DNA from: Shigella phage JK55
Strand: one strand, 5' to 3'
Length of the DNA: 64,000 bases
Sequence record: MK962758
Below the pieces are notes generated by a model. That model did not search any database, had not been told where the DNA came from, and saw nothing but the letters and a program-made list of their open reading frames with translations. Shown one piece after another: positions 12,994 through 32,369 of the stretch (position 1 is the stretch's first letter; each line of letters opens with the position of its first letter). The position numbers were made by a program, and so were the translations under genes.

Positions 12994-13524
12994 ATGAACA
13001 AGTTTAAAGCTATCAACTTCATTCGTTCAAATGCTGTAATGTCAAAACCTGTAAAAGACACATACGAATTTCGCTGCAATGGGGTACACTTTGCAACCAT
13101 CACTAAGTCAGAAAACGGGGCTTATTACATTCATCGCCGTAATGTTTCTACTGTTGTAGTCTCTCACTTTATGCAAGCTGTAGCGGAATTATTACCGTTA
13201 TTCTTAGAGATTTACTTAGATGAGTGCAAAAACGTTCGTAACCACGTTAAAAACCTTTTAAACGGTTATAAAATGGCTTATGAACGTTCTATCAAGTCCT
13301 TAAACAAGTTTTATAAAGCCCCTGTAAATACTGTTTCAATGGCTTACAGTGTAAGCGGTGAGTTGGTTAGCCTCTTCGAAGTAGAAGAAATTGAACTATA
13401 TGACTCACGTCCTAGCGGTTACTCTAAGACACTGGGAGAAGGTTTATCTTTCAATATCAAGAACTTAGAAAAAACTTTAAAAGATATTGAAAAAGATATT
13501 GACGAAACAATCAAAAGTCTGTAA
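12994..13524 (+). CDS. hypothetical early protein (176 aa)
   Basis: ORF behind type-A cassette. Confidence 0.55.
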   Translation: MNKFKAINFIRSNAVMSKPVKDTYEFRCNGVHFATITKSENGAYYIHRRNVSTVVVSHFMQAVAELLPLFLEIYLDECKNVRNHVKNLLNGYKMAYERSIKSLNKFYKAPVNTVSMAYSVSGELVSLFEVEEIELYDSRPSGYSKTLGEGLSFNIKNLEKTLKDIEKDIDETIKSL

Positions 13525-13603: not shown

Positions 13604-13852
13604 ATGGCTACTATCCGCGCAACTGTTAACGAATTTGGCTTCTACTCTCTGGACGTTAAATTTGACCTTGTAGGTACTGATAACGCCTTTGAAATGGTGA
13701 AAGGCCTTATCAGCCAGACCATCAGTGACTACAACCCCTCTGATGAATTCTGGAAAGAAACAAAACAAGAAGCCCTTAAAGATGGTTACACTTATCACTA
13801 TTGGGGCGAAAAAATTGTCTCCCTGTACTACGACAAAAAAGGCACTAACTAA
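13604..13852 (+). CDS. hypothetical small early protein (82 aa)
   Basis: ORF behind type-A cassette; last gene before the non-coding region. Confidence 0.55.
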   Translation: MATIRATVNEFGFYSLDVKFDLVGTDNAFEMVKGLISQTISDYNPSDEFWKETKQEALKDGYTYHYWGEKIVSLYYDKKGTN

Positions 13853-13890
13853 ACGCCGCAACGGGGCTAAATAGCCCCAGATACCTTTAC

Positions 13891-13941
13891 AGCCCCTTTC
13901 CCATATAGATTCGATAGAGTCTATCTCATAGGGGCTTTTTT
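13891..13941 (+). terminator. terminator-like hairpin (AGCCCCT...AGGGGCT + TTTTT) closing the plus-strand early array
   Basis: 7-bp stem with long structured loop then TTTTT; preceded by smaller hairpin GGGGCTAAATAGCCCC at 13864-13879. Confidence 0.5.
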
Positions 13942-14288
13942 ACGTCTTATCAAATCCCTTATACAACCCTTTCCCTTTCCTTTCCAGAATCTTATCAGAC
14001 CTTAAAAGCAATAACTCTATAGCTTACTCTATAGCCTTTTATTAAATCAACTTAAATATAAGCCCATAACCCGAAAGGGAAGGGCAACCATTTAAACGCT
14101 CTATAAAGCCCTATAACGGCCTTATTAACCTAACTTAAGGGATTGCATTACCTCACCCTTAAAAGCCCTTTATAAAGCTTCCCAGAGCCTTAAAAGAATC
14201 TTATAAGGGTATAAGCTTTATTATCTCGTTAGCTATCTTGTGAATAACTAAAAAGGGCTTGTTAGTGTCTTAAAAGTATGTTATAGGG

Positions 14289-14347
14289 GCTTAAAAGTTA
14301 CTTTGAAGTAGCTTAAAAGTTACTTTGAAGTAGCTTAAAAGTTACGT
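14289..14347. repeat. short tandem repeat, about 2.6 copies of 22-bp unit GCTTAAAAGTTACTTTGAAGTA
   Basis: Read directly: ...GGGGCTTAAAAGTTACTTTGAAGTAGCTTAAAAGTTACTTTGAAGTAGCTTAAAAGTTACG. Confidence 0.8.
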
Positions 14348-14389
14348 AAATGCTAGCCCCCTTAACAATTTCTTAACAATCCCTACATA

Positions 14390-15051
14390 GTTATGCTTTT
14401 AAGGCACTTGTTAGCAACTTGTTAGCCCCTTGTTAAATCTCTGTTAAGACCACGTAAAAGCCTTGTAAGAGTCTTTGACATAGCCTTTAAAGCTTCTGTA
14501 AAGCCTTATAAAAAGGTGTCTGTATAGTTGGGCTGTAGATACTAGGAAGAGACTTAAAAGAGCTTACAAGGAGCTATAGAGAGCTTTTAAGAGGGCTATT
14601 TAGAGATTCACTAGGGATTGGTAACAATACCAATTAAGAGGGAAAGGGAACGATAAGAAAAGAGTAGTGACCATGTTAACAACTTGTTAAAAAGATTAAA
14701 CACTTGTTAGGAACTTGTTAATTATCTTAACAAAATAACTCTTAACATTTAACTACTTAGCTCTTGTTAGTCATCTGTTAAGATTCTGTAAAGCCTATTC
14801 AGCAACTGTTAAGATTCTGTTACATCCTTGTTAGTTCTGTTAAGAATCTGTTAAGGCCTTTGAAGATTTGTTAAGAGCTTGAGAGAGTTGTTAAGAGATT
14901 GTTAAGGATATTTTAAAATTTTGCAAAGTACTTGTAAGGGAGTTGTTAAGGGCTACCAAGCAGATATACATCCTAATCAGATATTTTTCAGTTCCTTCAA
15001 AGACCCTAAAAAATGACTTGATAGCTCTATTTTATAAAAATTTTAAGATTC
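14390..15051. repeat. 662-bp tandem direct repeat, copy 1 (iteron-rich)
   Basis: Sequence from 14390 repeats at offset 662; all line-by-line spot checks identical. Confidence 0.85.
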
Positions 15052-15713
15052 GTTATGCTTTTAAGGCACTTGTTAGCAACTTGTTAGCCCCTTGTTAAAT
15101 CTCTGTTAAGACCACGTAAAAGCCTTGTAAGAGTCTTTGACATAGCCTTTAAAGCTTCTGTAAAGCCTTATAAAAAGGTGTCTGTATAGTTGGGCTGTAG
15201 ATACTAGGAAGAGACTTAAAAGAGCTTACAAGGAGCTATAGAGAGCTTTTAAGAGGGCTATTTAGAGATTCACTAGGGATTGGTAACAATACCAATTAAG
15301 AGGGAAAGGGAACGATAAGAAAAGAGTAGTGACCATGTTAACAACTTGTTAAAAAGATTAAACACTTGTTAGGAACTTGTTAATTATCTTAACAAAATAA
15401 CTCTTAACATTTAACTACTTAGCTCTTGTTAGTCATCTGTTAAGATTCTGTAAAGCCTATTCAGCAACTGTTAAGATTCTGTTACATCCTTGTTAGTTCT
15501 GTTAAGAATCTGTTAAGGCCTTTGAAGATTTGTTAAGAGCTTGAGAGAGTTGTTAAGAGATTGTTAAGGATATTTTAAAATTTTGCAAAGTACTTGTAAG
15601 GGAGTTGTTAAGGGCTACCAAGCAGATATACATCCTAATCAGATATTTTTCAGTTCCTTCAAAGACCCTAAAAAATGACTTGATAGCTCTATTTTATAAA
15701 AATTTTAAGATTC
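15052..15713. repeat. 662-bp tandem direct repeat, copy 2
   Basis: Identical to 14390-15051 in every segment compared. Confidence 0.85.
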
Positions 15714-16218
15714 TGAATAATTACCTATACAGTCTTTTAAAAATACAGGTAGAAACAGGCTTATAAGATACCTTGTTAGTACCGTGTTAGACCTTGTGAG
15801 ATAAGGTCTGTAAAGATATTCCTGTTAAGTTTGTTAAAACAGTCTATATAGAGGCTTAGTAATACCTAGTGAACACCTATAGAGAGTATCATAGCTAACC
15901 TAGAGATTAAGAGGTGTATAGGAGCTTCTAAGAGGGTGTAGAGAGATGGTTAAGGTGATTGTATAGGTTGTTAAGAAGGCTTGTTAGAAGAGTGTTTAGA
16001 AGGCTTGTTAGAGGGTTATTTAGAAGGGCTATACAGATGGGCTATTAAGACCACTAGATAGTTACTAAGATACTATATAGTACTATATAACTATATAGAG
16101 AGTAAGATTAAGAAGGTTGTTAAGAAGGATAGATATTTTGTTCACATATGATGGTGACCCAGAGGTTGGGACAACCGATAAAATTTTATAAAAAATATAA
16201 ATTTCGTAAATTTTACTC

Positions 16219-16249
16219 AATAAAAAGCCCCCAATTAAGGAGGCTCTTA
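16219..16249 (-). terminator. rho-independent terminator for minus-strand block
   Basis: On minus strand: GAGCCTCCTTAATTGGGGGCTTTTTATT (stem plus U-run) just after the stop of 16257..16850. Confidence 0.5.
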
Positions 16250-16256
16250 AGATATT

Positions 16257-16850
16257 TTAAATCAATGTTTCCAGAACTGTTTTTAGGGATGACTTAGTTG
16301 TCTGATAAAAATGAGTGAATCCGTTGTTGTTATCGAATATCTGCATCATGATATCATCTCCCTTGATTGGGTATACTCGGATATCATAGTGAAACCCGTT
16401 AAAGACAGCAGAACCATTACAGAACACACTAAAATCGTCCACTGAGATATACTCTTCATGTCCTGTGATTTTTATACAGACGCCTTTGCTCGGTCTCTTA
16501 GGGTTGATATCTTCCATCACAGACATACTCTGTCCACCAAGAGATACCATAGTGACCACTTTACGGTTCTTCTGTCTAAAGTACATTTTAACTTTCTGTA
16601 AAGTGTCTTCATAGAACGGATAAGACTTCTCTACAAAGATTCCTTCAAGTGGCTCTTTACCATTTTCAACTTCTCTGGTATGTCGTACTGCAAAGATAAT
16701 TTGTTGGAACCAGTCAAGATTTTCTTCGGAGAGTGCTTCACGAACATCACTCCAGTCAAGGACTAGGTAGTTACCTTCAACTTCTTTTAAGTTATCTTTT
16801 TCCATAGCTATCACACCATTATCGTAAAACTTGGTAGGCTGGTACTGCAA
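16257..16850 (-). CDS. hypothetical protein
   Basis: ORF in co-directional minus-strand block. Confidence 0.5.
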   Translation of the reverse strand: MQYQPTKFYDNGVIAMEKDNLKEVEGNYLVLDWSDVREALSEENLDWFQQIIFAVRHTREVENGKEPLEGIFVEKSYPFYEDTLQKVKMYFRQKNRKVVTMVSLGGQSMSVMEDINPKRPSKGVCIKITGHEEYISVDDFSVFCNGSAVFNGFHYDIRVYPIKGDDIMMQIFDNNNGFTHFYQTTKSSLKTVLETLI

Positions 16851-25489: not shown

Positions 25490-25566
25490 CTCTGTTTAGC
25501 TCAGCTTGGTAGAGCGTTCCGTTTGGGGCGGTAAGGCCGGAGGTTCAAGTCCTCCAACAGAGACCA
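25490..25566 (+). tRNA. tRNA-Pro (anticodon TGG)
   Basis: Hand-folded cloverleaf: 7-bp acceptor CTCTGTT/AACAGAG, D-arm GCTC..GAGC, anticodon loop TTTGGGG, T-arm GGAGGTTCAAGTCCTCC, CCA encoded. Confidence 0.7.
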
Positions 25567-25573
25567 AATTAAT

Positions 25574-25651
25574 GTTCCAGTAGACAAAATGGTATAGTCA
25601 CCACTCTTTCAAAGTGGATATCTGAGGGTTCAAATCCCTTCTGGAACGCCA
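25574..25651 (+). tRNA. tRNA-Glu (anticodon TTC)
   Basis: Acceptor GTTCCAG/CTGGAAC, anticodon stem CCACT/AGTGG with loop CTTTCAA, T-arm GAGGGTTCAAATCCCTT, CCA encoded. Confidence 0.6.
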
Positions 25652-25738
25652 GTTTTGACAGAAGACCAATTACAGCAAACTGAATCTACTCATCTGACAC
25701 GAAATCGGACAAAGAAGATATTTGGTCTGGTCATTAAG
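25652..25738 (+). ncRNA. repeated structured element, copy a (ACAGAAGACCAATTACAGCAA ... TTGGTCTGG)
   Basis: Shares 5' motif and covarying closing stem with copies b, c, d. Confidence 0.4.
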
Positions 25739-25741
25739 AAT

Positions 25742-25818
25742 TGCGGGTATAGAGAAAGGGCGTCTCACATGTCTCATTAGCATGGTATCGGCAGGTTCGA
25801 CTCCTGCACCCGCCTCCA
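25742..25818 (+). tRNA. tRNA-Met or Ile2 (anticodon CAT)
   Basis: Anticodon loop CTCATTA, T-arm GCAGGTTCGACTCCTGC, acceptor about 6/7 bp, CCA encoded. Confidence 0.55.
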
Positions 25819-25819
25819 A

Positions 25820-25892
25820 ATTTACAGAAGACCGTTTACAGCAATACTTATTAAATTTTTAGCGGAAAAATTGAAAGATGCGGTCTGGTAAT
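25820..25892 (+). ncRNA. repeated structured element, copy b (ACAGAAGACCGTTTACAGCAA ... CGGTCTGG)
   Basis: As above; closing stem AGACCG/CGGTCT. Confidence 0.4.
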
Positions 25893-25901
25893 ACTAAACA
25901 T

Positions 25902-25975
25902 GGTTAGGAAGCACATAAGGTATGTGCGGTCGCCTGTTAAGCGAATGGCACAGGGTTCGAATCCCTGACTAACCG
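25902..25975 (+). tRNA. tRNA-Asn (anticodon GTT)
   Basis: D-arm GCAC..GTGC, anticodon loop CTGTTAA, T-arm CAGGGTTCGAATCCCTG; no CCA encoded. Confidence 0.55.
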
Positions 25976-25986
25976 CAAAATTTAAA

Positions 25987-26075
25987 TGTGTCGTTATCCC
26001 GTAGATGGTAGCGGTGGGGACTGTAAATCCCTTGTCATTGAGACTCGGTAGGTTCGACTCCTACACGGCACACCA
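25987..26075 (+). tRNA. tRNA-Tyr (anticodon GTA), long variable arm
   Basis: Anticodon loop CTGTAAA, about 15-nt variable arm, T-arm GTAGGTTCGACTCCTAC, CCA encoded. Confidence 0.6.
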
Positions 26076-26080
26076 ATAAA

Positions 26081-26158
26081 GGTTATGTAGTTTAATTTGG
26101 TTAAAATACTCCCCTGTCACGGGAGATGATGAGGGTTCAAATCCCTTCGTAACCGCCA
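26081..26158 (+). tRNA. tRNA-Asp (anticodon GTC)
   Basis: Anticodon stem CTCCC/GGGAG with loop CTGTCAC, T-arm GAGGGTTCAAATCCCTT, CCA encoded. Confidence 0.6.
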
Positions 26159-26216
26159 ATTTTGAGAGGGCTATTTAGCCCCTCCCTTAAAGAGTTCTTA
26201 CGAGTATTCTTTAAAG

Positions 26217-26296
26217 GAGTAGAAGACCAAATACAGCAAGAATGTATGATATTTTCAAGCCAATTCAATTTTGAAAAAATTTAAAACTTGGTCTGG
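26217..26296 (+). ncRNA. repeated structured element, copy c (AGAAGACCAAATACAGCAA ... TTGGTCTGG)
   Basis: As above; closing stem AGACCAA/TTGGTCT. Confidence 0.4.
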
Positions 26297-26306
26297 CTCA
26301 ACAAAT

Positions 26307-26450
26307 TTACAGAAGACCGTTTACAGCAAAACTTAAACAATCTATTTCTCGGTAAAGAAAAGGCGAAGGTTCGATTCCTTCACTCGGCAGAGGTCGAGTT
26401 GGTGTAATGGTAGCACTTAAGATGATAAACAACGGTCTGGTAATTATCTT
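26307..26450 (+). ncRNA. repeated structured element, copy d, expanded; contains tRNA-like T-arm (GAAGGTTCGATTCCTTC) and D-arm-like segment
   Basis: Closing stem AGACCGTT/AACGGTCT; internal T-loop motif and TGGTGTAATGGTAGCAC D-arm-like segment, but no complete cloverleaf found. Confidence 0.35.
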
Positions 26451-26585
26451 TGTAGATAAGTTATTAAGCTTACCTGTGAGTATGCGACCACAAAGGGTGA
26501 AAGGGTAAATTCTAGATTTAAACCCAAAAAGTCACATCGCTACAGACCTTAAGCAAGTCTGGGTAGCTTATCTACAAAGATAATT
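26441..26585 (+). repeat. 19-bp perfect inverted repeat (TAATTATCTTTGTAGATAAG / CTTATCTACAAAGATAATT) enclosing 105 bp
   Basis: Arms at 26441-26460 and 26566-26584; candidate RNase III-type processing stem or miniature inverted-repeat element. Confidence 0.6.
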
Positions 26586-26589
26586 TAAT

Positions 26590-26665
26590 GGAAGTGTAGC
26601 AGAATGGTGATGCGGCAGACTTTTAATCTGACAGGCGATGGGTTCGAATCCCTCCACTTCTACCA
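26590..26665 (+). tRNA. tRNA-Lys (anticodon TTT)
   Basis: Acceptor GGAAGTG/CACTTCT, anticodon loop CTTTTAA, T-loop TTCGAAT with weak T-stem, CCA encoded. Confidence 0.5.
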
Positions 26666-26669
26666 AAAT

Positions 26670-26746
26670 GGTTCAGTCGCAGATAAGGTAATGCAAGGGT
26701 CTCATAAGCCCTATGAATGTGGGTTCGAATCCCATCTGAACCTCCA
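26670..26746 (+). tRNA. tRNA-Met or Ile2 (anticodon CAT), second copy
   Basis: Acceptor GGTTCAG/CTGAACC, anticodon stem AGGGT/GCCCT loop CTCATAA, T-arm GTGGGTTCGAATCCCAT, CCA encoded. Confidence 0.6.
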
Positions 26747-26748
26747 AT

Positions 26749-26823
26749 TGTGGGTTAGCATAAATGGTAATGCAAACGGCTGATAACCGTTAGAAGAGGG
26801 TTCGATACCCTCACCTACAACCA
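26749..26823 (+). tRNA. tRNA-Ile (anticodon GAT)
   Basis: Anticodon stem AACGG/CCGTT loop CTGATAA, T-arm GAGGGTTCGATACCCTC, CCA encoded. Confidence 0.6.
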
Positions 26824-26838
26824 AATTCAATAAAGTTG

Positions 26839-26867
26839 TTGACATTGAGATGTGACTACTTTATAGT
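26839..26867 (+). promoter_or_regulatory. sigma70-like promoter inside tRNA cluster (TTGACA-17-TATAGT)
   Basis: -35 26839-26844, -10 26862-26867; about 200 nt of non-tRNA sequence follows before the next tRNA. Confidence 0.55.
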
Positions 26868-27070
26868 ACCCTTAGTTTTCGTTGCGTAGCGTCTATTTTG
26901 CAAATTTAAAATAAATGCAAACGACAATGTTTTTCTGGCAGTAGCTTGATAGGCTAAACACCAGTGAGGTCTTCCAATCCCTCATCAAAGAATTTGGCGT
27001 ACTCGCCCACGGTATGATTAATAAGGTGGGCATCTTTAAGGGCTTTCTAAGAGAGTCTTTAAAGATTAAT

Positions 27071-27147
27071 GCACCCTTAGTTCAACTGGACAGAGCAAAT
27101 GACTTCTAATCATTGAGTTACAGGTTCGAATCCTGTAGGGTGCGCCA
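27071..27147 (+). tRNA. tRNA-Arg (anticodon TCT)
   Basis: Acceptor GCACCCT/AGGGTGC, anticodon stem AATGA/TCATT loop CTTCTAA, T-arm ACAGGTTCGAATCCTGT, CCA encoded. Confidence 0.65.
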
Positions 27148-27289
27148 ATTAGTTAGCAGATTACTTAGACGACCTAAGCGGGTCTTCCTGTAGGGAGGTG
27201 GTCTGTATCTCATGTTTTCCAGAACATGTAAATAATCTGAGAAGGGGCTTTACAGTGTTGAGATAATACGGTAAGTTTCGAATTATAGT

Positions 27290-27372
27290 ATGGGACGATG
27301 TTAAGACTCTAAGGCATGAGCAACGGCCTCCAAAACCGTTTCAAAGGGGTTCAACTCCTCCGTCCCATGCCA
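27290..27372 (+). tRNA. atypical tRNA-like gene (possible anticodon CCA in an enlarged 9-nt loop; isotype unresolved)
   Basis: Perfect acceptor ATGGGAC/GTCCCAT, T-arm AGGGGTTCAACTCCTCC, CCA encoded, but 83 nt long with about 7 extra nt between acceptor and anticodon arm; stem AACGG/CCGTT encloses CCTCCAAAA. Confidence 0.35.
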
Positions 27373-27385
27373 AAGTCTTATTAGT

Positions 27386-27473
27386 GGTAGGTAGCGGCTA
27401 ATGGTAGCCAAACTGTCTTGAAAACAGTTGCCACTGTAGAGATACGGTGAGGGTTCGACTCCTTTACTTACCG
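27386..27473 (+). tRNA. tRNA-Ser (anticodon TGA), long variable arm
   Basis: Anticodon stem ACTGT/ACAGT loop CTTGAAA, long variable arm, T-arm GAGGGTTCGACTCCTTT; no CCA encoded. Confidence 0.55.
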
Positions 27474-27730
27474 CCTAATAAGATTTAAAGCCAAGCTTCA
27501 TTCGGATGTTGCTTTGGTATCCCTCGTGTATTGTCGTACACACTAATAAAGCACCTAGTAGGTGTCACGGAGAAGAGATAATATCAAGCTCTCCAAAGGT
27601 TCTAGTCACCGGATTAAACAAGACTATGCAAAGACCTTTTTAGGTCTTTTTAGAGGGCTTCTAAGGTTATTACAGCTTGTTGTGGAACCTTGTTGCTTAG
27701 GTTCTTAGAAGTTCTCTAAAAAGGTTTAAT

Positions 27731-27808
27731 GGGAGATTGACGGTAATTGGTAAACCTATCTCGCTTAGAACGAGATGTTTGAGGGTTCGAATCCCTTGTC
27801 TCCTACCA
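27731..27808 (+). tRNA. tRNA with anticodon TAG (Leu by code) but short variable arm
   Basis: Anticodon stem TCTCG/CGAGA loop CTTAGAA, T-arm GAGGGTTCGAATCCCTT, CCA encoded; class-I length. Confidence 0.45.
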
Positions 27809-27815
27809 AATTAAT

Positions 27816-27891
27816 GCAGGTGTAGCAAAATGGTTATGCGGCTGACTCTTAATCAGTAAGACGATGGGTTCAATTCCCTCCACCTGTACCA
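27816..27891 (+). tRNA. tRNA-Lys (anticodon CTT)
   Basis: Acceptor GCAGGTG/CACCTGT, anticodon stem GCTGA/TCAGT loop CTCTTAA, T-loop TTCAATT, CCA encoded; paralog of tRNA-Lys(TTT). Confidence 0.5.
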
Positions 27892-27897
27892 AACAAT

Positions 27898-27973
27898 GGG
27901 GTCATAGTTTATATGGTTAAAATTCGAGTTTTGCAAACTTGGGAACTGAGTTCAATTCTCAGTGACTCCACCA
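27898..27973 (+). tRNA. tRNA-Ala (anticodon TGC)
   Basis: Anticodon stem CGAGT/ACTTG loop TTTGCAA, T-arm CTGAGTTCAATTCTCAG, CCA encoded. Confidence 0.5.
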
Positions 27974-27979
27974 ATTAGT

Positions 27980-28054
27980 GCATCCATAGTTTAAACGGGA
28001 AAATTACAGTCTTCCAAACTGAGGTTGAGGGTTCGATTCCCTCTGGATGCTCCA
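27980..28054 (+). tRNA. tRNA-Gly (anticodon TCC)
   Basis: Perfect acceptor GCATCCA/TGGATGC, anticodon loop CTTCCAA, T-arm GAGGGTTCGATTCCCTC, CCA encoded. Confidence 0.6.
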
Positions 28055-28060
28055 AACAAT

Positions 28061-28137
28061 GCTGCTTTCGTATAATTGGCTATTACACATCCCTTGTAAG
28101 GATGGAAATGCAGGTTCGAGTCCTGTGAGCAGCACCA
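28061..28137 (+). tRNA. tRNA-Thr (anticodon TGT)
   Basis: Anticodon stem CATCC/GGATG loop CTTGTAA, T-arm GCAGGTTCGAGTCCTGT, CCA encoded. Confidence 0.65.
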
Positions 28138-28140
28138 ATT

Positions 28141-28232
28141 CAGAGGTCAAGTGAAAGACCGCTGGTGTCAACTGAAGACCGTAACAAATTCCACGGAGTT
28201 GAGTTAGCGGCACAACTTCAGACCTCTTTCAC
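28141..28232 (+). ncRNA. structured non-tRNA element between tRNA-Thr and tRNA-Val (nested inverted repeats)
   Basis: AGAGGTC...GACCTCT outer inverted repeat, CTGAAG...CTTCAG inner repeat, contains the GAAGACCGT motif shared with copies a-d; no T-loop motif. Confidence 0.35.
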
Positions 28233-28307
28233 ACTCGCTTAGTTTATATGGTAAAACATCACCCTTACAAGATGAAGAAAAAGGTTCAAGTCCTTTAGTG
28301 AGTACCA
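28233..28307 (+). tRNA. tRNA-Val (anticodon TAC)
   Basis: Acceptor ACTCGCT/AGTGAGT, anticodon loop CTTACAA, T-arm AAGGTTCAAGTCCTT, CCA encoded. Confidence 0.5.
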
Positions 28308-28308
28308 T

Positions 28309-28386
28309 GTTCCAGTATCCCAATTGGCAGAGGATGCAAGCTCAAACCTTGTATTAGTGACGGTTCGAATCCGTCTTGGAACACCA
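28309..28386 (+). tRNA. tRNA with anticodon CAA (Leu by code) but short variable arm
   Basis: Acceptor GTTCCAG/TTGGAAC, anticodon stem GCAAG/CTTGT loop CTCAAAC, T-arm GACGGTTCGAATCCGTC, CCA encoded. Confidence 0.45.
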
Positions 28387-28405
28387 ATTTTAAGAGGCTA
28401 TTTAG

Positions 28406-28963
28406 ATGAGATATTTGAAGTATGCTTCATGGATTTTCTTAGCTTTACTAGAACCATTTGCAGCAACCCTAGCAGTCATCTTAGCACCTTTCGTAGTTCC
28501 ATTCTACAGTGAGAAGAAAGGGCATCTACCTTTTGGATTCAGATGGATGGAGACCTATGACAACCCGATTGATGGTGATAAAGGCCACGTTGAGAGATGG
28601 GCTAAGATTAGAAAGATTGGCAAGCTCGGTGTTTATATGCAGAGAGTTGGATGGCTCTGGAGAAACAAAGCTTATAACTTCTCTTACCATGTATTAGGAA
28701 GAGATGTAAAAGATGTTACTAAGTGGAAAGGTAATATCAACGTAAGTTCTGACCCTGAAGATAATCAGACAGGTTATCTCCTAATGTGGAACAACAATGC
28801 TTGGGGATTATTCGCTTTTATTCCGTCAATTAAAATCTTTGGTAAACAGTTTTACTGGAGAATTTATGTTGGATGGAAACTAAAAAGTGTTGTCCCAGAA
28901 GAAAGAGCATTCTCAAGGGAAAGAGTTATGTTGGCATTCTTTATTCATCCACTGAGAAAGTAA
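28406..28963 (+). CDS. hypothetical membrane protein embedded in tRNA cluster
   Basis: N-terminal hydrophobic segments (IFLALLEPFAATLAVILAPFVVPF); AAGAGG RBS 9 nt upstream. Confidence 0.55.
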   Translation: MRYLKYASWIFLALLEPFAATLAVILAPFVVPFYSEKKGHLPFGFRWMETYDNPIDGDKGHVERWAKIRKIGKLGVYMQRVGWLWRNKAYNFSYHVLGRDVKDVTKWKGNINVSSDPEDNQTGYLLMWNNNAWGLFAFIPSIKIFGKQFYWRIYVGWKLKSVVPEERAFSRERVMLAFFIHPLRK

Positions 28964-28971
28964 AGATTTAA

Positions 28972-29047
28972 AGGGGATTAGTTTACAAGGTTAAAACCTC
29001 GGTCTTTGAAATCGAAGAAGTTGGTTCAATTCCAACATCCCCCGCCA
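28972..29047 (+). tRNA. tRNA-Gln (anticodon TTG)
   Basis: Anticodon stem TCGGT/ATCGA loop CTTTGAA, T-arm GTTGGTTCAATTCCAAC, CCA encoded. Confidence 0.55.
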
Positions 29048-29049
29048 AT

Positions 29050-29128
29050 GCTCCATTACTCCAATTGGCAGAGAGGCCAGACTTAAAATCTGTGTTATGT
29101 ATCGGTTCGAATCCGATATGGAGTACCA
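29050..29128 (+). tRNA. tRNA with anticodon TAA (Leu by code) but short variable arm
   Basis: Acceptor GCTCCAT/ATGGAGT, anticodon loop CTTAAAA, T-arm ATCGGTTCGAATCCGAT, CCA encoded; D-arm paralogous to the CAA tRNA. Confidence 0.45.
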
Positions 29129-29133
29129 AATTT

Positions 29134-29209
29134 AGCGGTATAGCATAACTGGCAATGCAGCAGTCTCTGAAGCTGTCTTATTAAGGTTCAAATCCTTATG
29201 CCGCTGCCA
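29134..29209 (+). tRNA. tRNA-Gln (anticodon CTG)
   Basis: Acceptor AGCGGTA/TGCCGCT, anticodon loop CTCTGAA, T-arm TAAGGTTCAAATCCTTA, CCA encoded. Confidence 0.5.
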
Positions 29210-29240
29210 CTTCTAAGGGTTCTTACGAGAGTCCTTAAAT

Positions 29241-29316
29241 GTGGCCTTATCATAAATGGTAATGACCCATGCTGTGAACATGGTCTATACGGGTTCAAAT
29301 CCCGTAGGTCACCCCA
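29241..29316 (+). tRNA. tRNA-His (anticodon GTG)
   Basis: Anticodon stem CCATG/CATGG loop CTGTGAA, T-arm ACGGGTTCAAATCCCGT, CCA encoded. Confidence 0.65.
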
Positions 29317-29322
29317 ATTTAT

Positions 29323-29398
29323 AGTCCAAGTAGCTTATATGGTTAAAGCGCGTGTCTGAAAAACATGAGAAGAGGGTTCGAATCCCACTGGACTACCA
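29323..29398 (+). tRNA. tRNA-Phe (anticodon GAA)
   Basis: Anticodon stem CGTGT/ACATG loop CTGAAAA, T-loop TTCGAAT, CCA encoded. Confidence 0.55.
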
Positions 29399-29416
29399 AT
29401 TTCAAAGGTGCTTAAT

Positions 29417-30149
29417 GAAAGAGATGACAGAACAAGGTAAGGAGATTTTTAATCTCTTAAAAACCGGTAAAGGGTTTTCTAACCCACTTATTACTGGTGC
29501 AGCAGTTCTCGGTGGAACCGTAGCTGCTTCTACATCACTTGTAAGCTCTATTAGTTCTGTAACAGACCCTACAATGCAGGAGAAACTTGTTGCTGCTGGA
29601 CTTACAACAGTCCTTCTAAACAGCTTTACAACAAGCCTTACAAGCACTACAGCAACTACTAAAACTCTGACAGACTACGGTCAAAAGTCTATTGATGAGT
29701 TTTCATCACGTATGCAGGTAGCAAAGGGGTATTCCAATGTTATGGGTGCAGCAGGAGAGCAAGTTGGTTGTACACCATTCAGTGGTATCATGGGTGTTGC
29801 TACAGAGTATGGTCAAAAAGCTATTAACATGATGAACAGTACACTAGATAGTGTTAATGGTGTGTTAAGTGACTTACAAGATGCTATTGATAAGGGTCTT
29901 GATACTGTTTCTGATTTAGCTAATCAGGCTGTTAGTAAGATTAATGAAGGTATTTCAAAGATTACAGCTTATGCAGATGAAGTTGTGCAGATGATTGAAG
30001 AAGAAGCTTCCCTTATTGCAGAGTACCTTAAAACGAATATCAATGGGTTCTTAGCAGGTATCTTACCAGACTGGTTTGATGATGCCTGTAAAACTGGTGT
30101 GATTGACACTATTGCAACACCAGAAATGAAGAGCGCATTACAGAAATAA
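29417..30149 (+). CDS. hypothetical protein (Ser/Thr/Ala-rich N-terminal region) embedded in tRNA cluster
   Basis: Start moved to ATG 29417 (AAAGGTG upstream) because the track start 29352 lies inside tRNA-Phe. Confidence 0.5.
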
Positions 30150-30150
30150 T

Positions 30151-30243
30151 GGAAGATTAACCCTAAAAGGTAAGGGAGCAGTTTGCTAAACTGCCAGTAG
30201 CTGAGAAATCGGTGTACCAGTTCAAGTCTGGTATCTTCCTCCA
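30151..30243 (+). tRNA. tRNA-Ser (anticodon GCT), long variable arm
   Basis: Perfect acceptor GGAAGAT/ATCTTCC, anticodon stem GCAGT/ACTGC loop TTGCTAA, about 20-nt variable arm, T-arm ACCAGTTCAAGTCTGGT, CCA encoded. Confidence 0.7.
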
Positions 30244-30247
30244 ATTT

Positions 30248-30323
30248 GAATCCGTGACAGAAATGGATATGTGCCTGTCTGCAAAACAGGTTTATAAGGG
30301 TTCGAGTCCCTTCGGATTCTCCA
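30248..30323 (+). tRNA. tRNA-Cys (anticodon GCA)
   Basis: Perfect acceptor GAATCCG/CGGATTC, anticodon stem CCTGT/ACAGG loop CTGCAAA, T-arm AAGGGTTCGAGTCCCTT, CCA encoded. Confidence 0.7.
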
Positions 30324-30746: not shown

Positions 30747-30767
30747 TTCTATTTGCGGAGGTGCTTA

Positions 30768-32369
30768 ATGGACTTAAATGCTGTTAAGCAGAAGCGAGTG
30801 GAAGATGTTAGGAAAGTCCTAGCTGGAGAGTTGGGGCTTTCTGATGAAGTAAAAGAAATTATCAAATCATTCGGTAAAGACCCCTCTAAATTCCTTCCAA
30901 CTCAAATTCTGACTTTATTAAGATACACACCAGACCAAGTTCGCCTTATCTTTAAGTTGATGACTGATAAGAACTATGTAGCCCCTCAGCCGGGTTCTCA
31001 AGAGGTCTTTTTAAACACTAATGCTGACTTGGTACTCTATGGTGGTGCTGCTGGTGCTGGTAAGACTGCTGCATTGTTAATGGACTCTTTAAGATTTATT
31101 GAAGACCCTAACTATAATGCTGTGTATTTCCGTCGAAACACAACACAGCTACAAGGTGGTTTATGGCCTGCTGCAAAGAAACTATTTGGTAAGTTTGGTG
31201 GGATTCCTCACGAGCAGAAAATGACTATTACATTCCCTTCTGGGGCAACTATCAAGTTTACCTACCTAGAACTTGAAAAGCACGCTGAAGGTCATCAGGG
31301 TATTGAATACTCAGCTATTTACTTTGACGAAGGTACACACTTTTCTGCTTCACAGATTTCATATCTACAAACCCGTTTACGTTCTGGTGCTGAAGGTGAT
31401 TCATACATGAAGATTTCCATGAACCCAGACAGAGACCACTTTATTTATGATTGGGTAGAACCATTCTTAGATGAAGAAGGTTATCCAGACCCTGAAAAGT
31501 GTGGTCGTATTCGTTGGTATGTAATGAATGATGGTGTGATGGTTTCTGATTGGGAGAGAGACAAGATTCTTGAAATGTTCCCTCTGGAGATTCCTCAAAC
31601 ATACACCTTCATCTCTGGTACGATTGATGATAACCCAATTCTTGACTTCTTAGAACCTAAGTACCGTGGTAAGCTGGAAAACAACACCCCTGTAAACGTT
31701 GCAAGACTTCGTTTCGGTAACTGGAAGGCTCGTGCAGAAGGTTCAAACTATTGGCAAAGGCAATGGTGTGAAATTGTTGATTCACTCCCAGAGGATGTAT
31801 TTGATGTTAGAGCATGGGACTTAGCAGCAACTTTACCATCTGAAATTAACCCTAATCCAGACTGGACAGCAGGTGTTAAGATGGGTAAATCTAAAAAAGA
31901 CGGTTGCTATTATATCATTGATGTAGTAAGATTTAGAGATAGACCCTCTGGAGTCGAAACACAAATTAATTTGACTGCTGAAAGTGACGGTAAGCGAACT
32001 GGTATTTTTATCCCTCAAGACCCAGGCGCTGCTGGTAAATCCTACGCAACATCCCTCATCAGGAAACTTGCCGAGAAAGGTTATCGAGCAAGAGCCAAAC
32101 CAACAAATAAAGATAAAGTTACCCGCTTTGCGGGGTTTTCTGCTGCTTCTGAAGCTGGACTTGTAAAAGTTTTGAGAGGTAGTTGGAACGAAGCTTATTT
32201 CCAAGAGCTTGAAGGCTTTTGTGGTGATGGCAAAACTAAAGATGACCAAGTGGATGCTACCAGTGATGCTTTCAACAGTCTTAACGAAGTTAAATTATTC
32301 AAGCCACCATCAATGGGTGCTCACACAGACTTAGTGAGAGGAAACCCATATGAGGGGCTTAGACGTTGA
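30768..32369 (+). CDS. terminase large subunit
   Basis: Walker A P-loop LYGGAAGAGKT near N-terminus; first gene of head module; start set at ATG 30768 behind GGAGG RBS (track start 30753). Confidence 0.75.
   Translation: MDLNAVKQKRVEDVRKVLAGELGLSDEVKEIIKSFGKDPSKFLPTQILTLLRYTPDQVRLIFKLMTDKNYVAPQPGSQEVFLNTNADLVLYGGAAGAGKTAALLMDSLRFIEDPNYNAVYFRRNTTQLQGGLWPAAKKLFGKFGGIPHEQKMTITFPSGATIKFTYLELEKHAEGHQGIEYSAIYFDEGTHFSASQISYLQTRLRSGAEGDSYMKISMNPDRDHFIYDWVEPFLDEEGYPDPEKCGRIRWYVMNDGVMVSDWERDKILEMFPLEIPQTYTFISGTIDDNPILDFLEPKYRGKLENNTPVNVARLRFGNWKARAEGSNYWQRQWCEIVDSLPEDVFDVRAWDLAATLPSEINPNPDWTAGVKMGKSKKDGCYYIIDVVRFRDRPSGVETQINLTAESDGKRTGIFIPQDPGAAGKSYATSLIRKLAEKGYRARAKPTNKDKVTRFAGFSAASEAGLVKVLRGSWNEAYFQELEGFCGDGKTKDDQVDATSDAFNSLNEVKLFKPPSMGAHTDLVRGNPYEGLRR

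Follow-up and report, generated by a model that had tools for sequence, protein, structure and literature searches.

A stretch of 662 bp is written twice in direct succession in the DNA of Shigella phage JK55 (sequence record MK962758), of which 64,000 nucleotides ("the window") were analysed here. The locus raises the question of whether the second copy is part of the phage genome or a product of record handling, and of how the repeated unit relates to the direct terminal repeat (DTR) in which the genomes of related phages end. The two copies and the locus that holds them are as follows:

14390..15051, + strand: copy 1, exact 662-bp unit, 0 mismatches to copy 2
15052..15713, + strand: copy 2, exact 662-bp unit, identical to copy 1
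13853..16256, no strand: non-coding terminal locus (ca. 1.74 kb minus one copy), delimited by the ORF list and the converging flanking genes

Direct comparison of 14390-15051 with 15052-15713 (662 nt each) gave 0/662 mismatches, and the identity that the original prediction had noticed in the segments compared therefore holds over the full length of the copies. Beyond either edge the period-662 match fails at the very first base, so that the repeat region is exactly 14390..15713; the layout is X-U-U-Y, and its sole novel junction is 15051|15052 (AAGATTC|GTTATGC; with wider surroundings, …AAAATTTTAAGATTC|GTTATGCTTTTAAGG…). A chance origin or mere near-identity of the 662-nt repeat was rejected, since a match without mismatches and with such sharp edges is impossible by chance in 64 kb. 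The 662-bp repeat was missed by TRF, the longest period of which is 500; the program did report the short-period arrays inside the unit, once per copy and at a spacing of 662 nt. No microhomology was found at the breakpoints (0 bp; the period match stops exactly at 14390 and 15713), and the breakpoints do not share the homology by which slippage or a microhomology-mediated tandem duplication would be recognised. The nearest TTTTAAG words common to both breakpoints, read directly from the sequence, lie 644 bp apart, not 662. A restriction site or microhomology as the cause of the breakpoints was likewise looked for by reading the sequence, and none was found.

No other non-coding stretch is as large as the locus, which is dense in short repeats. 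Genes on the + strand stop at 13852 and a gene on the − strand stops at 16257, both sides converging on the locus. No ORF of at least 60 aa lies in 13853-16256, which bears out the earlier description of the repeat as non-coding DNA; just two small TTG-started ORFs (51 and 53 aa) were listed there, one of which spans the junction. An Rfam search of the region gave no family above noise, and with neither credible ORFs nor an Rfam match, a coding or RNA role of the 662-bp unit was rejected. No credible genes are annotated at the locus in the relatives' records, and promoter-like matches reach only about twice the shuffle mean, most of them reusing the TTAACA motif. After removal of one copy, conservation across ten relatives is comparable to that of coding DNA (mostly >0.9 per 20-nt window). 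In the collapsed locus, TGTTA(A/G) motifs are enriched 16-fold (15.6 per kb vs 0.97 per kb elsewhere), with 27 forward copies in 1.74 kb, nearly all on one strand and often in 11-bp phase. The principal repeats are:

14763..14907 (and 15425-15569 in copy 2), + strand: phased TGTTA(A/G) arrays with periods of 11, 20 and 31, from the repeat analysis
14289..14345, + strand: perfect 22-bp tandem repeat, 2.6 copies, found by TRF directly upstream of the DTR left boundary

Besides these, CTTAAAAG is ca. 20-fold enriched in the collapsed locus, chiefly upstream of the DTR, and TRF reported a 24-bp array (2.6 copies, 82% matching) at 15965-16027, downstream of the duplication.

The window represents the genome of a Felixounavirus (Felix O1-like), with the record opening at rIIA. 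Over the locus and the 13.8 kb on its left side, it matches upwards of 250 Felixounavirus records with ca. 88-94% identity, and base 1 of the window corresponds to record base 1 of UAB_69, Alf5 and IME338, opening at rIIA being an annotation convention in the genus (PMC3185647). Because the record is laid out from rIIA, the physical ends must fall inside it. A portal gene is present, as expected for the genus, and so is a cluster of tRNA genes (25490-30323, + strand); with 25 genes, this cluster slightly exceeds those of Felix O1 and Ro111lw, for which 22 are reported. Also present is the enzyme by which the DTR boundaries are expected to be cut:

30753..32369, + strand: terminase large subunit (TerL; PHROG 979, E=1e-233), the expected cutter at the DTR boundaries

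It shares at least 99% amino-acid identity with the TerL of 205 Felixounavirus records and is the TerL of the DTR-forming Felix O1 group.

In this genus, the DTR has been described repeatedly. A 608-bp DTR was proven for UAB_Phi87 by Bal31 digestion and run-off sequencing (PMC4837284); DTRs were called with PhageTerm for Ro111lw (613 bp; PMC6454146) and for the Philippine phages, D4 among them (PMC11737134), and a short DTR was reported for UAB_69 (PMC11350853), the rIIA-first record of which annotates it as a single internal 618-bp feature in the same stretch. Exact repeats were found at both record ends of ZX4221 (591 bp), ECP2307 (592 bp), NBEco004 (628 bp), Ro111lw (613 bp), SeKF_63 (613 bp) and D4 (581 bp). 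The end repeats of these six share their boundaries, GCCCCCTTAACA... at the 5′ side and ...GTTAAGGGCTACC at the 3′ side: all open with GCCCC(C/T)TTAACA… and all close with the latter sequence. The ends of the six relatives (E. coli, Salmonella) and the UAB_69 annotation agree to within 2 bases, and the records of SPJ41 and pEP20 likewise begin exactly at a DTR boundary.

These ends could be transferred to the window, which is colinear in this region with the mapped DTRs of ZX4221, Ro111lw, SeKF_63, D4, ECP2307, NBEco004 and UAB_69:

14356..14957, + strand: DTR-equivalent stretch of 602 bp, by homology to relatives with mapped ends
14356..14379, + strand: left DTR boundary motif GCCCCCTTAACAATTTCTTAACAA, which recurs in inverted orientation as TTGTTAAG-type sequence close to the right boundary
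14945..14957 (second instance 15607-15619), + strand: right DTR boundary motif GTTAAGGGCTACC, by homology

The left boundary sequence occurs a single time in the window, at 14356, and the right boundary sequence ends at 14957 and again, in copy 2, at 15619. The first ca. 24 bp of the DTR (CCTTAACAATTTCTTAACAA) are the inverted complement of TTGTTAAG pairs near the right end (95% for I7 and 81% for I15). The two boundaries are thus inverted copies of one motif, TAGCCC(CC)TTAACA / TGTTAAGGGCTA (14356-14379 vs 14888-14907 and 14932-14957), with cut positions 4 nt apart relative to the motif. Read inward from either physical end, the DNA opens with GCCC(CC)TTAACA, nearly the same sequence, and transcription of the genes on either flank runs toward the ends. 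These two mutually inverted boundary motifs allow the termini of Felixounavirus genomes to be located by homology with single-base precision. At 14360/14361, right at the beginning of the DTR, the window lacks one 11-bp CTTAACATTTT unit, which is present in all four aligned relatives covering the site (momo, mio, Andreotti and UAB_69) and was also seen at the record starts of six further relatives. The 662-bp unit is 87-91% identical to the relatives (85-91% is given for the homologous DTR sequence).

The duplicated unit and the DTR coincide in large part. The unit covers 568 of the 602 DTR-equivalent bases (94%), begins 34 bp inside the DTR and extends 94 bp beyond the right boundary; the left motif GCCCCCTTAACA... 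falls outside it, and the stretch 14390-15051 is not delimited by the conserved pair GCCCCCTTAACA... and ...GTTAAGGGCTACC. A true head-to-tail join of DTRs would be expected to show a period of ca. 602 and the junction GGGCTACC|GCCCCC, whereas a period of 662 and the junction AAGATTC|GTTATGC were found; because of the offset of +34/+94, 15051/15052 is not a clean right-end/left-end join. If a 662-bp duplication were placed at random in the genome, ca. 129 of ca. 87,000 starts (ca. 0.0015) would give an overlap of at least 568 bp, and with starts limited to the non-coding locus 129 of ca. 1073 (ca. 0.12) would do so, both by our own arithmetic. The unit matches the DTR too closely for the two to be unrelated. 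The underlying element is an already described class, the Felixounavirus short DTR: it has in common with the DTRs of UAB_Phi87 (608 bp), Ro111lw (613 bp), UAB_69 and Felix O1 the locus, the convergent genes, the boundary motifs and a near-identical terminase. It differs from them in that the relatives' copies stand at opposite record ends or are written once internally and are adjacent here, and in that the unit measures 662 bp, not ca. 600 bp, with its edges shifted by +34 and +94 bp.

A comparison of copy number in related phages, suggested together with the original prediction, was carried out and gave a single internal copy in every relative examined. With one copy removed, the window is colinear with 10 of 10 aligned relatives across both breakpoints, and in every one of them the sequence at either breakpoint runs on without interruption and is conserved; in Felix O1 and in one metagenome relative the locus is single-copy as well. 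A 300-bp junction query was split in two pieces in all of the best 60 of 254 matching phage records. A 50-bp junction query gave no match by megablast against 50,697 phage records, a search that is insensitive to relatives below ca. 95% identity, and exact and degenerate patterns of the junction were not found in IMG/VR or in JGI metagenome contigs. The canonical DTR-DTR junction, used as a control, was also not found in IMG/VR, nor in the 60 best records, which indicates that adjacent DTR copies are not the usual way of writing these genomes. Exact look-up of the two proteins nearest the locus in a contig collection gave no match; with a third protein, only two related metagenome contigs were matched, the longer of which carries a single-copy locus. 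The phage itself is thus absent from that collection.

The tandem arrangement was seen in none of the relatives examined, and record handling is the best explanation for it: the duplication probably consists of redundant contig ends, caused by the DTR, that were rotated to rIIA untrimmed. The virion DNA of the genus is linear and has an exact DTR of ca. 0.6 kb, which the terminase would generate by processing concatemers at a pair of fixed boundary sites, in the manner of T7-type packaging. With the DTR present twice per molecule, one contig could traverse the DTR region twice, and its ends would overlap because that region occurs twice per genome. Such a contig would start at 14390, ca. 34 bp inside the true left end, would continue across the right-end copy and for another 94 bp of sequence that truly follows the left-end copy, and would have its last base at 15051. 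Re-opening of this contig at rIIA without trimming of the overlapping ends would produce the layout X-U-U-Y: the junction would be blunt, the copies would be perfectly identical, and microhomology would be absent. This is the assembly and rotation history that we infer for the record. The duplication resembles untrimmed contig ends in a re-opened "circular" phage record in being an exact tandem copy with a blunt junction, in being confined to one record and in lying at a doubled-coverage site. SPAdes and typical de Bruijn assemblers leave overlaps of k-mer length (PMC13108922), from which the present case differs; as 662 bp is no k-mer size, one has to suppose that a different assembler or a manual step was involved.

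A precedent is given by the record of Escherichia phage humlepung (MN850564.1), positions 1-199 of which hold a fold-back: a reverse-complement DTR copy equivalent to window 14430-14498 and, after it, forward sequence from the equivalent of window 14362. The record stops 27 bp past the DTR left boundary. This fold-back at a physical end looks like an assembly artefact, and it shows that assemblies in the genus misbehave within ca. 30 bp of this left end. Against redundant contig ends it must be held that the offsets of +34/+94 fit no standard assembler signature (such as a k-mer-length overlap), that no software step can be named that yields exactly these ends, and that the finished sequence would look no different if the duplication were genuine and had occurred in a tolerant non-coding locus. 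A peak shift of the Nextera or PhageTerm kind was considered as the cause of the offset and rejected: it could give +34 on the left, and it cannot give the outward +94 on the right.

The last of these objections leads to the chief rival, a genuine and very recent 662-bp tandem duplication in the isolate that arose through illegitimate recombination, or through an error of replication or packaging, in the terminal locus with its many repeats. An insertion would be tolerable in this largest, repeat-packed non-coding stretch, perfect identity suits a recent event, and boundaries that differ between unit and DTR are to be expected if the duplication has nothing to do with record handling. The breakpoints, however, lack microhomology, the junction occurs neither in the relatives examined nor in any collection searched, and the 94% overlap with the DTR would have to be a coincidence (ca. 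12% within the locus, ca. 0.15% genome-wide), so that a genuine duplication appears possible and rather unlikely. We are doubtful, by a shade more, that the duplication is real in virion DNA and spans the right DTR boundary there, in which case the terminase could make DTRs of 602 bp or of 1264 bp. A genuine duplication would leave the phage with a single left-end site (14356) and with right-end sites at both 14957 and 15619; it would then serve as a natural experiment on the way in which a terminase of the T7 type selects and measures its repeat, and as a modest but usable handle on the choice of the DTR boundary.

As one alternative, the original prediction had named direct terminal repeats joined head-to-tail by circular representation, with the physical ends at 15051/15052. 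Its terminal-repeat part stood insofar as the locus is that of the DTR and the identity of the copies is what terminal redundancy gives; the ends map to 14356/14957, not to 14390/15051. Read literally, it calls for a 662-bp DTR with physical ends at 14390 and 15051, the copies of which were joined on re-opening at rIIA. A period equal to the unit length and a blunt junction are indeed what a DTR-DTR join gives, the DTR of the genus sits at this locus, and the 11-bp deletion at the canonical left boundary might alter cutting. A shift of the ends is nevertheless improbable: six relatives and the UAB_69 annotation place them at the equivalents of window 14356/14957, both canonical boundary sequences are intact in the window, nothing like a boundary motif is seen at 14390 or 15051, and a TerL so nearly identical throughout the genus makes a changed cutting specificity unlikely. 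Physical ends at 15051/15052 are, in view of the boundaries at 14356/14957 and of the mismatch in period and junction, almost certainly wrong. Active homogenisation, which had been raised as well, found no support, as no relative has a second internal copy. An older duplication held identical by gene conversion or concerted homogenisation would account for the perfect identity of the copies and for nothing else; the relatives, at 85-94% identity, each carry just one internal copy, which leaves no older duplication to homogenise, and a search for a relative with two diverged internal copies found none. We consider this explanation hardly credible.

If the second copy is a product of redundant contig ends, as we think probable, the deposited genome is 662 bp too long and does not mark its true ends (14356 and 14957, placed by homology), and comparisons or copy-number counts that rely on the locus would be misled.

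In T7-type packaging, one repeat is present per concatemer junction, the terminase cuts at specific sites, and the repeat is duplicated during packaging. T7 reportedly has arrays of short repeats in and beside its terminal repeat, according to the description by Dunn and Studier. The Felixounavirus ends resemble this system in their short, exact, non-permuted DTR and in the short-repeat arrays in and beside it; they differ in that the repeat is ca. four times longer than the 160 bp of T7, and the packaging mechanism is assigned here by analogy. On this analogy, the terminase would cut the concatemer junction at the two inverted boundary motifs, and the repeat would be copied in the course of packaging. 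We infer that the phased TGTTAAG arrays are candidate binding sites of the packaging machinery.

Two minor observations concern the surroundings of the duplication and its interior. Two genes upstream of the locus, 12994-13524 encodes a 176-aa product that is listed with Pfam PF26821 (Phage_T4_Y16F), and a protein identical to it occurs on two ENA metagenome contigs. Inside the unit, a palindromic mini-element of 22-24 nt, T-AATTGGTA-TTGT-TACCAATCCC-T, was found at 14611-14637 and 15273-15299; it has a 7-bp stem and a loop with the locus motif TTGTTA. The mini-element is absent from momo, mio, D4 and ECP2307, and it occurs at five or more different sites in the terminal non-coding locus across different Felixounaviruses, its orientation at the site in the window being opposite to that at the other four. 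One IMG/VR contig (L028) carries two copies, and the version in NBEco004 has an extra hairpin of 26 nt in the loop. Always flanked by T on both sides and adding 22-23 nt relative to empty sites, the mini-element behaves like a tiny mobile or hairpin insertion.
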